Source: Escherichia coli
GTDB lineage: Bacteria > Pseudomonadota > Gammaproteobacteria > Enterobacterales > Enterobacteriaceae
Assembly: GCF_050320075.1 (NCBI RefSeq)
Contig: NZ_CP190018.1
Direction: 5' to 3' (one strand)
DNA length: 64,000 nucleotides
In this document: positions 29,813-48,811 of the stretch, piece by piece
Layout: every line of letters begins with the position of its first letter
Position numbering within the stretch: the first letter of the stretch is position 1
The notes under the pieces: generated by a model
Told to the model about the DNA's origin: nothing
The model's database searches: none
What the model saw: the letters and a program-made list of their open reading frames with translations, nothing else
Position numbers and translations under genes: made by a program

Positions 29813-30157
29813 ATGACTCAAAACTATGAACTGATTGTGAAAGGGATCCGCAATTTTGAGAATAAAGTTACGGTAACTTTAGCATTACAGGACAAAGAAC
29901 GCTTTGACGGTGAAATTTTTGACCTGGACATCTCGCTGGACCGTGTTGAAGGTGCTGCGCTGGAGTTTTATGAGGCAGCGGCCAGAAGGAGCATCAGACA
30001 GGTCTTCCTGGATGTCGCTGCCGGGTTATGTGAAGGGGATGAGCAGTCGCCGGAAAAGCGCCCCGTAATTTTAGAGGCGCAGAATGTATGGATAACCTAC
30101 AAAGGAAAGCTACCGGGAAGGATTACTGGTTCCCTGAAGACTCCGCCGAAATGGTAG
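29813..30157 (+). CDS. Hypothetical protein inserted between holin and endolysin
   Basis: 114-aa ORF, GGAGAG RBS, 5 bp after holin stop. Confidence 0.45.
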   Translation: MTQNYELIVKGIRNFENKVTVTLALQDKERFDGEIFDLDISLDRVEGAALEFYEAAARRSIRQVFLDVAAGLCEGDEQSPEKRPVILEAQNVWITYKGKLPGRITGSLKTPPKW

Positions 30158-30395
30158 TTTTGCCAGCATAATTTTCTTCCAGCAATGCCGCCAGCCACTT
30201 GAAAGAATTTTGTTGTTCCTGGGACCATTTGGGGTTGCGTGATTCAAAATGAATGGATGCCAGCGTTGGCAGCATTTGCTCCCTGGGAATTGATAAGGCC
30301 AGATGTGAAAATGCAACAGTGAGGGCATTTACATCATCCCGAAGCCTGAAAATGCAGTCGAGCAACTCCTGTAGAGAAATGGTGCTATTGTCCAT
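30123..30395 (-). CDS. Hypothetical protein, antisense to late operon
   Basis: 90-aa ORF with AGAGGA RBS; converges on and overlaps previous ORF by 35 bp. Confidence 0.3.
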   Translation of the reverse strand: MDNSTISLQELLDCIFRLRDDVNALTVAFSHLALSIPREQMLPTLASIHFESRNPKWSQEQQNSFKWLAALLEENYAGKTTISAESSGNQ

Positions 30396-31332: not shown

Positions 31333-31797
31333 ATGAACCGCGTACTGTGCGTGGTCATCATTGCCCTGCTGGTGGCCTGTGGTGCGCTTAGTCTGGGGCT
31401 GAATCATTACCGTGATAACGCCATTACCTACAAAGCCCAGCGCGACAAAAATGTCAGAGAACTGAAGCTGGCGAACGCGGCAATTACTGACATGCAGATG
31501 CGTCAGCGTGATGTTGCTGCGCTCGATGCAAAATACACGAAGGAGTTAGCTGATGCGAAAGCTGAAAATGATGCTCTGCGTGATGATGTTGCCGCTGGTC
31601 GTCGTCGGTTGCACATCAAAGCAGTCTGTCAGTCAGTGCGTGAAGCCACCACCGCCTCCGGCGTGGATAATGCAGCCTCCCCCCGATTGGCAGACACCGC
31701 TGAACGGGATTATTTCACCCTCAGAGCGCGACTGATAATAATGCAAAAACAACTTGAAGGGGCACAGCTATACATTCGAGAGCAATGCCTCAGATAA
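31333..31797 (+). CDS. Spanin, inner-membrane subunit (Rz)
   Basis: 154 aa; N-terminal TM then coiled-coil; embedded +1-frame lipoprotein gene. Confidence 0.75.
31553..31735 (+). CDS. Spanin, outer-membrane lipoprotein subunit (Rz1), embedded in Rz
   Basis: 60 aa; lipobox LVVVGC; proline-rich ([15 protein letters not shown]). Confidence 0.65.
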
Positions 31798-32104
31798 AAA
31801 CCGGCCAAGGATAATCCGCTGAAGATTCGCCGGTGGCTAAAGTGTGCCAAGAGTTCAATTTACGCAATTACTCCTGTCGATGCTATGTACCGTCTTTGTG
31901 AAGTCAATGGATACCTGATTTATTTCTGTGCGCTGTATCGTCGCTGTACTCTTGCATTAATTATGACTGTAGCCTGACGGGGAACTCCTTCTGCACAAGT
32001 GTGGGGGAATAATCAAAAACGATGCACACCGGGGTTACCGGGTACACATATTTCATCATGCCAGCGAGTCCGGTTCTGGCACGGAAGAAACCGGACGTTA
32101 TGAT

Positions 32105-32530
32105 TTAGTGCGGAAATATTTGTGTAGTGTTCTGAATGTTCTCAGTAAAGAGTAATGAATTATCAAAGGTATAGTAATACCTTTTGTTTTCGTGGATATT
32201 TGTAATCCATCTGAAAACCCCTGCTGTAGCAAGATTTTTCCTGTATTCGTAAAATGATAACTCTCCTGATTTGAATCCTTTTAAGGTGGCTTCTATAAGG
32301 CATTTATTTTTTGAAAATCTTACATTTACAACCTTACCCTGTCCTTTTATTAAAACCGTATTATCGTTTTCAAGAACAAGATGAATATTCTCTGTGGCTA
32401 AATAGTAAATGTAATGTGAGACATTGTGACGTTTTAGTTCAGAATAAAACCAGTGATAGTTTAAATTATTTCGCACTTTATCGAATATTTGTTTAAAAAT
32501 GGCAATCTGAGCCATTGTAGTACCTTCCAT
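32105..32530 (-). CDS. Hypothetical protein, AT-rich moron
   Basis: 141-aa ORF (alternative start at M6, 32515), Tyr/Asn/Lys-rich, ~30% GC, antisense to late operon. Confidence 0.4.
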
Positions 32531-32572
32531 GTGATATGAGGGGGCGTAGTCTGCACGATTATCTAAATTGCT

Positions 32573-32806
32573 TCAATCTGGTCTGACCTGTTTTCTGAGC
32601 AATTCAGTAATGTCACTCTTTTCTTTGTTTGCTTCAGGCGAAACTCTTTTTTCTGAGCACAGTCTCCGGCGGCAGGCTTCAATGACCCAGGCTGAGAAAT
32701 TCCCGGACCCTTTTTGAACAAGAGCGATGTTAATTTGTTCAATCATTTGGTTAGGAAAGCGGATGTTGCGGGTTGTTGTTCTGCGGGTTCTGTTCTTCGT
32801 TGACAT
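32573..32806 (-). CDS. Putative ribbon-helix-helix DNA-binding protein
   Basis: 77 aa; basic N-terminal tail then NIRFPNQMIEQINIALVQKGSGNFSAWVIEACRRRL, RHH-like pattern (inference). Confidence 0.35.
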   Translation of the reverse strand: MSTKNRTRRTTTRNIRFPNQMIEQINIALVQKGSGNFSAWVIEACRRRLCSEKRVSPEANKEKSDITELLRKQVRPD

Positions 32807-33005
32807 GAGGTTGCCCTGTATTCAGTGTCGCTGATTTGTATTGTCTGAAGTTGTTTTTACGTTAGGTTGATGCAGATCAATTAATACGATACCTGCGTCA
32901 TAATTGATTATTTGACGTGGTTTGATGGCCTCCACGCACGTTGTGATATGTAGATGATAATCATTATCGCTTTACGGGTCCTTTCCGGTGATCCGACAGG
33001 TTACG

Positions 33006-33017
33006 GGGCGGCGACCT
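33006..33017 (+). other. cosN 12-nt cohesive end (GGGCGGCGACCT)
   Basis: Matches lambda cohesive end and flanking ...ACAGGTTACG / CGCGGGTTTTCGCTATTTATGAAAATTTTC. Confidence 0.8.
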
Positions 33018-33193
33018 CGCGGGTTTTCGCTATTTATGAAAATTTTCTGGGGAAAATCATGTCGGTACTTCTCGAACATAACTATTTGTTTTTTCTAATA
33101 TCGAATCCGTAAAAGGTCCGACATGAAAACGCCTAAAAAAGTCATTTTCGGGCACTTTCATGTCGGCCCCTGTATTTATTGTGAGACTGTTTC

Positions 33194-33713
33194 ATGAAGG
33201 TTAATAAAAAGAAACTTGCCGAAATTTTCAACGTGGATCCGCGAACGATTGAACGCTGGCAGTCTCAGGGACTCCCTTGCGTCTCCGGAGGTGGTAAGGG
33301 CGTTGAATCTGTATTTGATACCGCCATGGCAATTCAGTGGTATGCGCAGAGGGAAGCTGATATCGAAAATGAAAAACTCCGTAAAGAGGTTGAGGATTAC
33401 AGGGCTGCCAGTGAGGCAGATCTCCAGCCTGGGACTATTGAGTACGAACGCCATCGACTTACGCGTGCGCAGGCCGACGCACAGGAGCTGAAGAATGCCA
33501 GAGACTCCGCAGAGGTGGTGGAAACCGCATTCTGTACTTTCGTGCTGTCACGGATCGCAGGTGAAATTGCCAGTATTCTTGACGGGATCCCTCTCTCGGT
33601 ACAGCGGCGTTTTCCGGAACTGGAAAACCGACATGTTGATTTCCTGAAACGGGATATCATCAAAGCCATGAACAAAGCAGCCGCGCTGGATGAACTGATA
33701 CCGGGGTTGCTGA

Positions 33714-33739
<26 letters not shown>
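33194..33739 (+). CDS. nu1: Terminase small subunit
   Basis: 181 aa, near-identical to lambda Nu1 over most of its length as I recall it. Confidence 0.9.
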
Positions 33740-37420
<3,681 letters not shown>

Positions 37421-46257: not shown

Positions 46258-48811
46258 ACCGGTAGGCGATCTGGTCGTTGATTTGAGTCTGGATGCGGCC
46301 AGATTTGACGAGCAGATGGCCAGAGTCAGGCGTCATTTTTCCGGTACGGAAAGTGATGCGAAAAGAACAGCGGCAGTCGTTGAACAGTCGCTGAGCCGAC
46401 AGGCGCTGGCTGCACAGAAAGCGGGGATTTCCGTCGGGCAGTATAAAGCCGCCATGCGTATGCTGCCTGCACAGTTCACCGACGTGGCCACGCAGCTTGC
46501 AGGCGGGCAAAGCCCGTGGCTGATCCTGCTGCAACAGGGTGGTCAGGTTAAGGACTCCTTCGGCGGGATGATCCCCATGTTCCGGGGGCTTGCCGGTGCG
46601 ATCACCCTGCCGATGGTCGGGGCCACCTCGCTGGCGGTGGCGACCGGTGCGCTGGCGTATGCCTGGTATCAGGGTAACTCAACCCTGTCCGATTTCAACA
46701 AAACGCTGGTCCTTTCCGGTAATCAGTCGGGTCTGACGGCAGATCGTATGCTGGTCCTGTCCAGAGCCGGGCAGGCGGCAGGGCTGACGTTTAACCAGAC
46801 CAGCGAGTCACTCAGTGCACTGGTTAAGGCGGGGGTAAGCGGTGAGGCTCAGATTGCGTCCATCAGCCAGAGTGTGGCGCGTTTCTCTTCTGCATCCGGT
46901 GTGGAGGTGGACAAGGTCGCTGAAGCCTTCGGGAAGCTGACCACTGACCCGACGTCGGGGCTGACGGCGATGGCGCGCCAGTTCCATAACGTGACGGCGG
47001 AGCAGATTGCGTATGTTGCTCAGTTGCAGCGTTCCGGCGATGAAGCCGGGGCATTGCAGGCGGCGAACGAAGCCGCAACGAAAGGGTTTGATGACCAGAC
47101 CCGCCGCCTGAAAGAGAACATGGGCACGCTGGAGACCTGGGCAGACAGGACAGCGCGGGCATTCAAATCCATGTGGGATGCGGTGCTGGATATTGGTCGT
47201 CCTGATACCGCGCAGGAGATGCTGATTAAGGCAGAGGCTGCGTTTAAGAAAGCAGACGACATCTGGAATCTGCGCAAGGATGATTATTTTGTTAACGATG
47301 AAGCGCGGGCGCGTTACTGGGATGATCGTGAAAAGGCCCGTCTTGCGCTTGAAGCCGCCCGAAAGAAGGCTGAGCAGCAGACTCAACAGGACAAAAATGC
47401 GCAGCAGCAGAGCGATACCGAAGCGTCACGGCTGAAATATACCGAAGAGGCGCAGAAGGCTTACGAACGGCTGCAGACGCCGCTGGAGAAATATACCGCC
47501 CGTCAGGAAGAACTGAACAAGGCACTGAAAGACGGGAAAATCCTGCAGGCGGATTACAACACGCTGATGGCGGCGGCGAAAAAGGATTATGAAGCGACGC
47601 TGAAAAAGCCGCAACAGTCCGGCGTGAAGGTGTCTGCGGGCGATCGTCAGGAAGACAGTGCTTATGCTGCCCTGCTGACGCTTCAGGCAGAACTCCGGAC
47701 GCTGGAGAAGCATGCCGGAGCGAATGAGAAAATCAGCCAGCAGCGCCGGGATTTGTGGAAGGCGGAGAGTCAGTTCGCGGTACTGGAGGAGGCGGCGCAA
47801 CGTCGCCAGCTGTCTGCACAGGAGAAATCCCTGCTGGCGCATAAAGATGAGACGCTGAAGTACAAACGCCAGCTGGCTGCACTTGGCGACAAGGTTACGT
47901 ATCAGGAGCGCCTGAACGCGCTGGCGCAGCAGGCGGATAAATTCGCACAGCAGCAACGGGCAAAACGGGCCGCCATTGATGCGAAAAGCCGGGGGCTGAC
48001 TGACCGGCAGGCAGAACGGGAAGCCACGGAACAGCGCCTGAAGGAACAGTATGGCGATAATCCGCTGGCGCTGAATAACGTCATGTCAGAGCAGAAAAAG
48101 ACCTGGGCGGCTGAAGACCAGCTTCGCGGGAGCTGGATGGCAGGCCTGAAGTCCGGCTGGAGTGAGTGGGAAGAGAGCGCCACGGACAGTATGTCGCAGG
48201 TTAAAAGTGCAGCCACGCAGACCTTTGATGGTATTGCACAGAATATGGCGGCGATGCTGACCGGCAGTGAGCAGAACTGGCGCAGCTTCACCCGTTCCGT
48301 GCTGTCCATGATGACAGAAATTCTGCTTAAGCAGGCAATGGTGGGGATTGTCGGGAGTATCGGCAGCGCCATTGGCGGTGCTGCCAGTGGTGGAGCATCC
48401 GCGTCAGGCGGTACAGCCATTCAGGCCGCTGCGGCGAAATTCCATTTTGCGACCGGGGGATTTACGGGAACCGGCGGCAAATATGAGCCAGCGGGGATTG
48501 TTCACCGTGGTGAATTTGTCTTCACGAAGGAGGCAACCAGCCGGATTGGTGTCGGCAACCTGTACCGCCTGATGCGGGGCTATGCGGAAGGTGGTTATGT
48601 GGGCGGTGCCGGAAGTCCGGCGCAGATGCGGCGGGCTGAAGGCATTAATTTTAATCAGAACAATCACGTGGTGATTCAGAACGACGGTACGAATGGTCTG
48701 CCAGGTCCACAGATGATGAAGGCAGTGTATGACATGGCCCGCAAGGGTGCCCGTGATGAAATTCAGGCACAGATGCGTGATGGTGGTCTGTTCTCCGGAG
48801 GTGGACGATGA
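46250..48811 (+). CDS. H: Tail tape measure protein H
   Basis: 853 aa, same length as lambda gpH. Confidence 0.9.
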   Translation: MAEPVGDLVVDLSLDAARFDEQMARVRRHFSGTESDAKRTAAVVEQSLSRQALAAQKAGISVGQYKAAMRMLPAQFTDVATQLAGGQSPWLILLQQGGQVKDSFGGMIPMFRGLAGAITLPMVGATSLAVATGALAYAWYQGNSTLSDFNKTLVLSGNQSGLTADRMLVLSRAGQAAGLTFNQTSESLSALVKAGVSGEAQIASISQSVARFSSASGVEVDKVAEAFGKLTTDPTSGLTAMARQFHNVTAEQIAYVAQLQRSGDEAGALQAANEAATKGFDDQTRRLKENMGTLETWADRTARAFKSMWDAVLDIGRPDTAQEMLIKAEAAFKKADDIWNLRKDDYFVNDEARARYWDDREKARLALEAARKKAEQQTQQDKNAQQQSDTEASRLKYTEEAQKAYERLQTPLEKYTARQEELNKALKDGKILQADYNTLMAAAKKDYEATLKKPQQSGVKVSAGDRQEDSAYAALLTLQAELRTLEKHAGANEKISQQRRDLWKAESQFAVLEEAAQRRQLSAQEKSLLAHKDETLKYKRQLAALGDKVTYQERLNALAQQADKFAQQQRAKRAAIDAKSRGLTDRQAEREATEQRLKEQYGDNPLALNNVMSEQKKTWAAEDQLRGSWMAGLKSGWSEWEESATDSMSQVKSAATQTFDGIAQNMAAMLTGSEQNWRSFTRSVLSMMTEILLKQAMVGIVGSIGSAIGGAASGGASASGGTAIQAAAAKFHFATGGFTGTGGKYEPAGIVHRGEFVFTKEATSRIGVGNLYRLMRGYAEGGYVGGAGSPAQMRRAEGINFNQNNHVVIQNDGTNGLPGPQMMKAVYDMARKGARDEIQAQMRDGGLFSGGGR

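Follow-up and report, generated by a model that had tools for sequence, protein, structure and literature searches.

The two genes considered here form a pair that is already known, being annotated in Escherichia coli K-12 as ynfO-ydfO and ylcI-ybcV and also present in phage lambda. In the Qin prophage the order is nohA-ynfO-ydfO, with a 77-aa YnfO and a 136-aa protein of the DUF1398 family. The right end of lambda carries bor, lambdap78 (DUF1398), the divergent ybcW-like gene lambdap79 and an unannotated 64-aa ylcI-like ORF (48139-48303), which lies about 200 bp from the right end, and the DLP12 prophage has the same layout (borD-ybcV-ybcW-ylcI-nohD). Both families are functionally blank, are part of the E. 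coli 'y-ome' and include some of the last lambda ORFs still to be characterised; in the literature we found no paper giving a function to either DUF3950 (the YlcI/YnfO family) or DUF1398. With respect to expression, ydfO is induced 12- to 116-fold under ionic-liquid stress (PMC4077768), and in K-12 ylcI is expressed from the ybcW-ylcI excludon, in which the two transcripts converge and overlap (PMC12288877). The lambdap78 gene was non-essential in a genome-wide CRISPRi screen of lambda (PMC10695390), and an antisense position has been described as characteristic of moron loci (PMC7067206).

We analysed a stretch of E. coli DNA of 64,000 nucleotides (NCBI RefSeq assembly GCF_050320075.1, contig NZ_CP190018.1), referred to below as the window, and judging from its sequence it is close to certain that the pair found there is a Qin-/lambda-type DUF3950 and DUF1398 accessory cassette of a lambda-like prophage. 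An earlier note on this DNA had described two antisense ORFs between Rz and cos. The six-frame ORF list indeed contains both on the minus strand (32573..32806, 77 aa, and 32105..32530, 141 aa), and the placement is borne out by Rz on the one side and an exact cosN on the other. The features of the locus are the following:

31333-31797, plus strand: Rz (ORF list)
31553-31735: Rz1 lipoprotein ORF, embedded in Rz (ORF list)
31798..31927: post-Rz junction of 130 bp without lambda homology, occupying the bor position of lambda and DLP12 (the blastn alignment to lambda breaks at 31788/31928)
32010..32049, minus strand: terminator-like hairpin followed by UUUUUGAUUAUU (MFE -14.5 kcal/mol, z -2.9; none of 200 shuffled sequences folds equally well)
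32068..32096, minus strand: GC-rich hairpin right after the DUF1398 stop, without a U-run (MFE -13.4 kcal/mol, z -2.5)
32105..32515, minus strand: gene of the DUF1398 (YdfO/YbcV/lambdap78) family, 136 aa (RefSeq start at the second ATG, 32515)
32523..32528, minus strand: Shine-Dalgarno sequence GGAAGG, 7 nt before the 32515 ATG (read from the sequence; agrees with the RefSeq start)
32573..32806, minus strand: ynfO-type gene encoding a 77-aa YlcI/YnfO (DUF3950) protein (ORF list, Pfam, NCBIfam, RefSeq)
32576..32592, minus strand: PdhR-type box AACAGGTCAGACCAGAT with the palindromic core GGTCAGACC (exact, unique in the window, 0.02 expected)
32876..32908: inverted repeat with 13-nt arms and a 7-nt gap, 85% complementary, 70-100 nt upstream of the ynfO ATG (repeat search)
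32950..32968, plus strand: Fur-box-like site matching GATAATGATAATCATTATC at 16 of 19 positions, between ynfO and cos/Nu1 (sole match in the window, 0.01 expected)
33006-33017, plus strand: cosN, the 12-nt cohesive end GGGCGGCGACCT (exact lambda sequence), marking the cassette boundary and, at the same time, the right terminus of the packaged DNA
33194-33739, after cosN: Nu1, the terminase small subunit (ORF list, RefSeq)

As the cosN sequence is exact, the end of the interval that had been marked as the cassette (33005) is the right end of the virion DNA. The cassette is antisense to the late operon and sits between functional modules, and the prophage appears intact around cos, with full Nu1 and A genes in the ORF list, whereas Qin is a defective prophage. 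In gene order, orientation, spacing and the sizes of both products the locus is otherwise the same as nohA-ynfO-ydfO of Qin, the difference being that gnsB, ynfN and cspI come between the Qin cassette and rzpQ, while in the window the cassette abuts Rz via a non-coding stretch of 300 bp. Lambda and DLP12 likewise have homologues of both genes on the same strand between Rz and cos, and share with the window a conserved region spanning the Fur box and cosQ/cosN and a conserved downstream linker; at the amino acid level the window and lambda are 76% identical in DUF1398 and about 95% identical in the YnfO core. The blastn alignment with lambda falls into three blocks, namely Rz, 31928-32589 and 32644-33799. 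Lambda and DLP12 differ from the window in having bor and, between the two genes of the pair, a 614-bp segment with the divergent ybcW/lambdap79 gene. This segment is replaced by 54 bp in the window, and as a consequence YnfO reads into the upstream region of the DUF1398 gene and is 77 rather than 64 aa long.

The cassette of the window is thus one that lacks both bor and the intervening ybcW-like gene. No Bor-like ORF occurs at the locus in the ORF list, the alignment to lambda skips bor, and 80 related loci gave no hit in a tblastn search with lambda Bor as the query. The cassette is no substitute for bor: 130 bp of unrelated DNA lie where lambda has bor, and the cassette is the element that comes after, both being present in lambda and DLP12. 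Its DUF1398 gene resembles bor and lom of lambda in being non-essential, atypical in GC content and presumably expressed in the lysogen and, like bor, it runs against the late operon where two modules meet. The products differ, in that Bor and Lom have signal sequences and reside in the outer membrane, whereas the DUF1398 protein is soluble, with neither a signal peptide nor a transmembrane segment (maximum Kyte-Doolittle value 0.39).

The base composition is less uniform than had been thought. An island of about 1.2 kb with 30-35% GC had been claimed, and this value applies to the DUF1398 gene only (411 bp, GC fraction 0.311); it is overstated for the interval as a whole (31800-33005), which stands at 0.405 against 0.498 for the window. 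The ynfO gene (0.449) is mildly lower than Rz, Nu1 and the window, which lie at 0.50-0.53, and the 307 bp of 31798-32104 have a value of 0.476; it is the DUF1398 gene that is distinct in composition. The 'operon arrangement' likewise requires qualification. Here the two genes are on the same strand, 57 nt apart and with no terminator between them, but the spacer contains a regulatory box of its own, and the pair is split in lambda and DLP12 by a divergent gene. A regulator-first order on one strand with a short spacer is also what would be expected of a type II toxin-antitoxin or abortive-infection module, which the earlier note thought the pair to resemble; YnfO would then be a ribbon-helix-helix (RHH) antitoxin, repressing the operon and using its C-terminal tail to neutralise DUF1398 as the toxin. 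The divergently transcribed gene between the two in lambda and DLP12 speaks against such a module, as does much of the evidence from the proteins themselves.

The larger protein, which the earlier note could not place in any family, is a full-length DUF1398 protein (Pfam PF07166, hmmscan E 3.9e-43, model positions 1-119 of 119; phrog_413, E 1.9e-89). Its identity to YdfO of E. coli K-12, for which an NMR structure has been determined (PDB 2HH8), is about 80%, and it contains the duplicated helix-helix-three-strand unit of the YdfO fold. Residues R15, Y35, T41, N43, W103, R112 and Y114 are conserved on its surface. The gene itself was called correctly, but its length was not: the 141-aa version begins at an upstream ATG (32530) that has no Shine-Dalgarno sequence, whereas the RefSeq start is preceded by GGAAGG. 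The fold is an orphan α/β fold, and in comparisons with toxin, defence and nuclease families and folds and with structural proteins no match was recovered. Neither this protein nor YnfO had a significant defence or toxin match in PADLOC or NCBIfam, PADLOC giving only Csx23 with an E-value of 0.026 over 49 residues, far below significance. A dN/dS of 0.32 indicates that the gene is under purifying selection. Some database labels describe DUF1398 as a 'head protein' (phrog_413, RefSeq lambda) or an 'envelope protein'; we reject both, because the protein is soluble, has an orphan fold, is non-essential in lambda and is common as a solitary chromosomal gene.

With regard to toxicity, the second gene of the pair thus belongs to no toxin family or fold, and YdfO was overproduced for the NMR work, which would argue against strong toxicity. 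The ASKA clone of ybcV is viable and has a glycogen-deficient phenotype (PMC2853380). The presence of ybcV overexpression in the glycogen-deficient list alongside the toxins yoeB and hokA in that study is a weak hint in the opposite direction. A weak PHROG HicB-like match (E 0.055) also speaks for the toxin-antitoxin reading.

The 77-aa protein matches Pfam DUF3950 (PF13132) with an E-value of 3.7e-20 and passes the curated cut-off of the NCBIfam model NF041551 (YlcI/YnfO) with 35.2 bits against 30; at E. coli chromosomal loci that are 100% identical, RefSeq names it 'YlcI/YnfO family protein'. All members of the DUF3950 alignment were scanned against Pfam and matched DUF3950 only. In YnfO the N-terminal arm is basic and conserved and the C-terminal tail is variable, with an RHH-like core (residues ~13-54) between them, and the order of the elements in the family alignment is a conserved Arg/Thr-rich N-terminal arm, an NIRFP motif, a helix, a Gly turn and a second helix (NFSAWVIEACRRRL). 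The tails differ among the Qin, lambda and Stx-phage types. In the window the coding sequence of the C-terminal third comes in part from the junction and in part from DNA that is non-coding in lambda, upstream of lambdap78, and the conserved functional unit of YnfO is therefore residues 1-54. A tail of this origin, a junction product encoded in part by the upstream regulatory DNA of DUF1398, is hard to reconcile with a toxin-neutralising element. The core, with a dN/dS of 0.13-0.28, is under purifying selection.

The view that YnfO is an RHH protein is plausible, not proven. In hhalign comparisons the DUF3950 profile aligned in register with the RHH domain of NikR over 40 columns (E 0.0054), and its alignment with Arc covered the strand and helix A (E 0.012), both values being below conventional significance; no alignment was obtained with Mnt, CopG or ParD. 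On the other side, profile searches linked DUF3950 to no solved structure, an hmmsearch of the PDB returning no match. The AF2 monomer (pLDDT 67) has coil at residues 1-18 followed by helices at 19-32 and 37-55, and the strand could be formed only in a dimer. YnfO differs from the established RHH regulators and antitoxins (Arc, the NikR N-domain, RelB, ParD and the CopG family) in that all its scores are under conventional significance and no PDB profile matches it. It further differs from RHH antitoxins in that the partner gene is no known toxin and is often absent.

The two families differ in their distribution. Of 5426 complete E. coli genomes, 5375 match the DUF1398 gene at the DNA level (8874 places) and 4186 match ynfO (9863 places, with up to 12 per genome), and these unequal numbers do not favour a toxin-antitoxin pair. 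In the phage collection tblastn detected DUF3950 in 155 records and DUF1398 in 43, and many Stx phages have DUF3950 without DUF1398. One such case is BP-4795, with a solo DUF3950 gene, antisense, between Rz and an HNH endonuclease/TerS packaging module. Here DUF3950 keeps its terminase-adjacent place even with a different packaging system, an observation that runs counter to a moron reading and could point to a role in phage development. A search of 1.84 billion representative sequences recovered only 188 DUF1398 relatives at the sequence level. The distant ones that are full-length (25-44% identity) are solitary chromosomal genes with unrelated neighbours, namely a GerE regulator, MetQ-like and add genes, and ycgX next to bluR. 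Foldseek added structural relatives annotated as DUF1398 in Bacteroidota, Firmicutes and α-proteobacteria. Obligatory co-occurrence of the kind expected of a toxin and its antitoxin is hence not seen for the two families, although the Qin-type variant is itself always paired: at IMG/VR loci with a 77-aa YnfO of 97-100% identity, DUF1398 follows about 60 nt downstream in 80 of 80 cases. At the same loci Rz identity ranges from 49 to 100% and Nu1 identity from 34 to 100%. As all 80 loci have a nearly identical YnfO, they are informative on pairing and mosaicism and not on covariation; the constant pairing next to variable Rz and Nu1 indicates that the Qin-type pair travels through mosaic lambdoid genomes as one unit.

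To the left of cos, the first regulatory element is the Fur-box-like site, which is at the same relative position as the K-12 Fur sites at nohA (-233) and nohB (-133). These are strong predicted Fur clusters, among the strongest, and the nohA site was gel-shifted by Fur (PMC2189734). They were assigned to the noh genes before ynfO and ylcI were annotated. Lying in a divergent region, the noh sites could equally serve the antisense gene (ynfO or ylcI). The inverted repeat at 32876-32908 may serve as an operator or a promoter element; it is in a region that is nearly invariant among lambda-type loci, while the upstream region of BP-4795 is unrelated. The whole 190 nt from ynfO to cosN are almost invariant, in contrast to the 34-100% identity of Nu1. 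A scan for consensus sigma-70 promoters on the minus strand upstream of either gene found none, and the total was no higher than in shuffled sequences. Rfam recorded no family over the region, only sub-threshold miRNA noise in the cosB hairpin.

The PdhR-type box falls in the final codons of ynfO and precedes the DUF1398 start by about 60 nt; a PdhR site of identical sequence was reported from gSELEX at ynfO/ydfO of Qin (PMC7660256). In DLP12 a related PdhR box lies between ybcV and ybcW, and the mRNAs of both genes drop about 10-fold in a pdhR mutant (PMC7660256). We consider the box a candidate for an independent regulatory site of the DUF1398 gene. The authors of the Fur and PdhR studies assigned their sites to neighbouring genes or left them uninterpreted, and an effect of either site on the cassette is putative. 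Beyond the DUF1398 gene, the hairpin and U-run at 32010-32049, some 55 nt downstream of the stop, are likely to form the 3' end of the antisense transcript. This element was not flagged by the consensus scan. The linker that holds it (31928-32104) is conserved both in lambda and in BP-4795, where it is downstream of the lone DUF3950 gene.

On balance we favour, if only by a modest degree of confidence, the interpretation of the cassette as an accessory 'moron' expressed in the lysogen and dispensable for lytic growth, which would encode an RHH-like DNA-binding protein and a soluble protein of orphan fold and appears to be wired to Fur and PdhR. Under this interpretation, the cassette would be transcribed leftward in the lysogen, with no need of the Q-dependent late transcript, and transcription would stop at the hairpin and U-run. 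YnfO may be a small dimeric RHH regulator, with its basic N-terminal arm, β-strand and two helices, acting on its own upstream region and possibly elsewhere. The wiring to host regulators would consist of the Fur box upstream of ynfO and the PdhR-type box upstream of DUF1398, and the latter gene probably has additional regulatory input of its own. The DUF1398 product, in which no catalytic site is recognisable, might be a cytoplasmic binding protein that benefits the lysogen through modulation of host physiology or some form of exclusion, rather than through virion production. The Fur box, PdhR box, candidate operator and terminator provide concrete handles for a simple genetic test.

Among the alternatives, phage exclusion or defence of a kind other than toxin-antitoxin, in which one or both prophage-expressed proteins would keep out superinfecting phages as lambda Rex or SieB do, has in its favour the moron position antisense to the late genes, the AT-rich effector gene, the very wide spread of the cassette in E. 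coli prophages and the general principle that many prophage morons at such sites proved to be exclusion genes (PMC7067206). It is in our estimation unlikely, since PADLOC offered nothing beyond the Csx23 hit, DUF1398 outside the enterics is mostly chromosomal and non-phage, and there is no reported phenotype, the loss of ydfO in one phage-resistant APEC mutant being anecdotal.

A role in phage development, with YnfO/YlcI as a cos- or terminase-proximal regulator (for example of late read-through, packaging or the lysis-packaging boundary) and DUF1398 as a dispensable passenger, would account for the antisense DUF3950 gene directly upstream of the small-terminase gene both in lambda-type cos phages and in the HNH/TerS-type BP-4795, and for the constancy of the 190 nt next to a variable Nu1. 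We nevertheless find it distinctly improbable: cosQ and cosN can themselves explain invariance near cosN, the BP-4795 upstream region is unrelated, the right end of lambda is classically dispensable and lambdap78 non-essential by CRISPRi, and defective, virion-less prophages such as Qin keep the gene under purifying selection.

We would assign a similarly low likelihood to a module gated by host signals, in which an antitoxin-like RHH protein, responding to iron via Fur and to pyruvate via PdhR, would repress or neutralise an orphan-fold DUF1398 effector that excludes other phages or reprogrammes host metabolism. Were it correct, it would supply the first function for two families that lambda itself and almost all E. 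coli genomes carry, and the 'nohA/nohB' Fur sites would be re-assigned to the divergent ynfO/ylcI gene. The toxin-antitoxin or abortive-infection model is the least probable of all and is not supported, in spite of the regulator-first layout and the constant pairing of the 77-aa variant, as DUF1398 matches no toxin fold, DUF3950 occurs solo, and distant DUF1398 genes are solitary and chromosomal.

Finally, a claim that YdfO overexpression raises oxidative-stress resistance (PMC4077768, citing Wang et al. 2010) was considered and discarded as a mix-up of names, because Wang et al. 2010 do not include ydfO and the result concerns YfdK, YfdO and YfdS of CPS-53. The confusion of YdfO with YfdO, which could otherwise pass as functional evidence, is hereby corrected together with the misleading labels of DUF1398.

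The bor gene is absent from the window after Rz, and the 130-bp stretch directly following Rz (31798-31927) shows no lambda homology. Elsewhere the window contains the following elements, in addition to the ynfO (DUF3950) and DUF1398 genes:

30123-30395, minus strand: 90-aa ORF, 'hypothetical protein' in RefSeq (region 29813-30395, paired with 1114-1696 of comparison locus L001)
31928-32104: conserved linker of 177 bp
32576-32592: PdhR-type box, identical in sequence to the Qin gSELEX PdhR site
32950-32968: Fur-box-like sequence, 16/19 to the consensus and the sole such match in the window
33110-33174: inverted repeat with 30-nt arms (77% complementary) and a 5-nt gap

The linker, within which a terminator-like hairpin is situated, is kept both in lambda, where it follows bor, and in phage BP-4795, where it follows Rz. 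The PdhR-type box lies upstream of the DUF1398 gene and overlaps the final codons of ynfO. The Fur-box-like sequence is found 38 nt to the left of cosN, in the same relative position as the published Fur sites of K-12 nohA and nohB. The original publication attributed the two K-12 sites to the noh genes (PMC2189734), but they lie in the divergent region common to noh and ynfO/ylcI. The inverted repeat belongs to the cosB region and shortly precedes Nu1; the sub-threshold Rfam matches to miRNA families that it attracts are spurious. The lysis cassette holds a further small antisense gene, namely the 90-aa ORF, which is flanked by the YdfR-family and lysozyme genes and overlaps the YdfR-family gene at its 3' end.

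In the lambda reference genome (NC_001416, locus L007) the ylcI-like ORF (48139-48303, minus strand; L007 200-364) is unannotated, and the DUF1398 protein lambdap78 (L007 928-1461; phrog_413) appears as an N-terminally extended CDS of 177 aa. RefSeq labels the latter a 'head protein' and other records name it 'putative envelope protein', both without support. The literature also mixes up ydfO (Qin, DUF1398) and yfdO of CPS-53 (PMC4077768, PMC9181523 versus PMC3105296): the oxidative-stress phenotype cited for YdfO (PMC4077768) belongs to YfdO (PMC3105296), and the SrsR paper writes "ydfO" where its own text means the yfdO-yfdP spacer (PMC9181523).

Protein database matches included hundreds of ENA contigs of about 3.5 kb coding noisy, length-variable forms of the YnfO-type and DUF1398 proteins, along with near-identical sequences filed under Staphylococcus aureus, Bacillus sp., Klebsiella, the spider Caerostris extrusa and 'Campylobacter phage CJLB-4'. 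These contigs and odd-taxon matches appear to be lambda control DNA that has contaminated public assemblies.

A DUF3950 gene in a position other than that between Rz and terminase was observed in Escherichia phage vB_KppS-Ant (LR881103, locus L008), a 16.5-kb element. This 67-aa DUF3950-like ORF (L008 2501-2704; 40% identical) adjoins a primase gene and runs antisense within an annotated 324-aa hypothetical CDS, which may itself be a mis-call.
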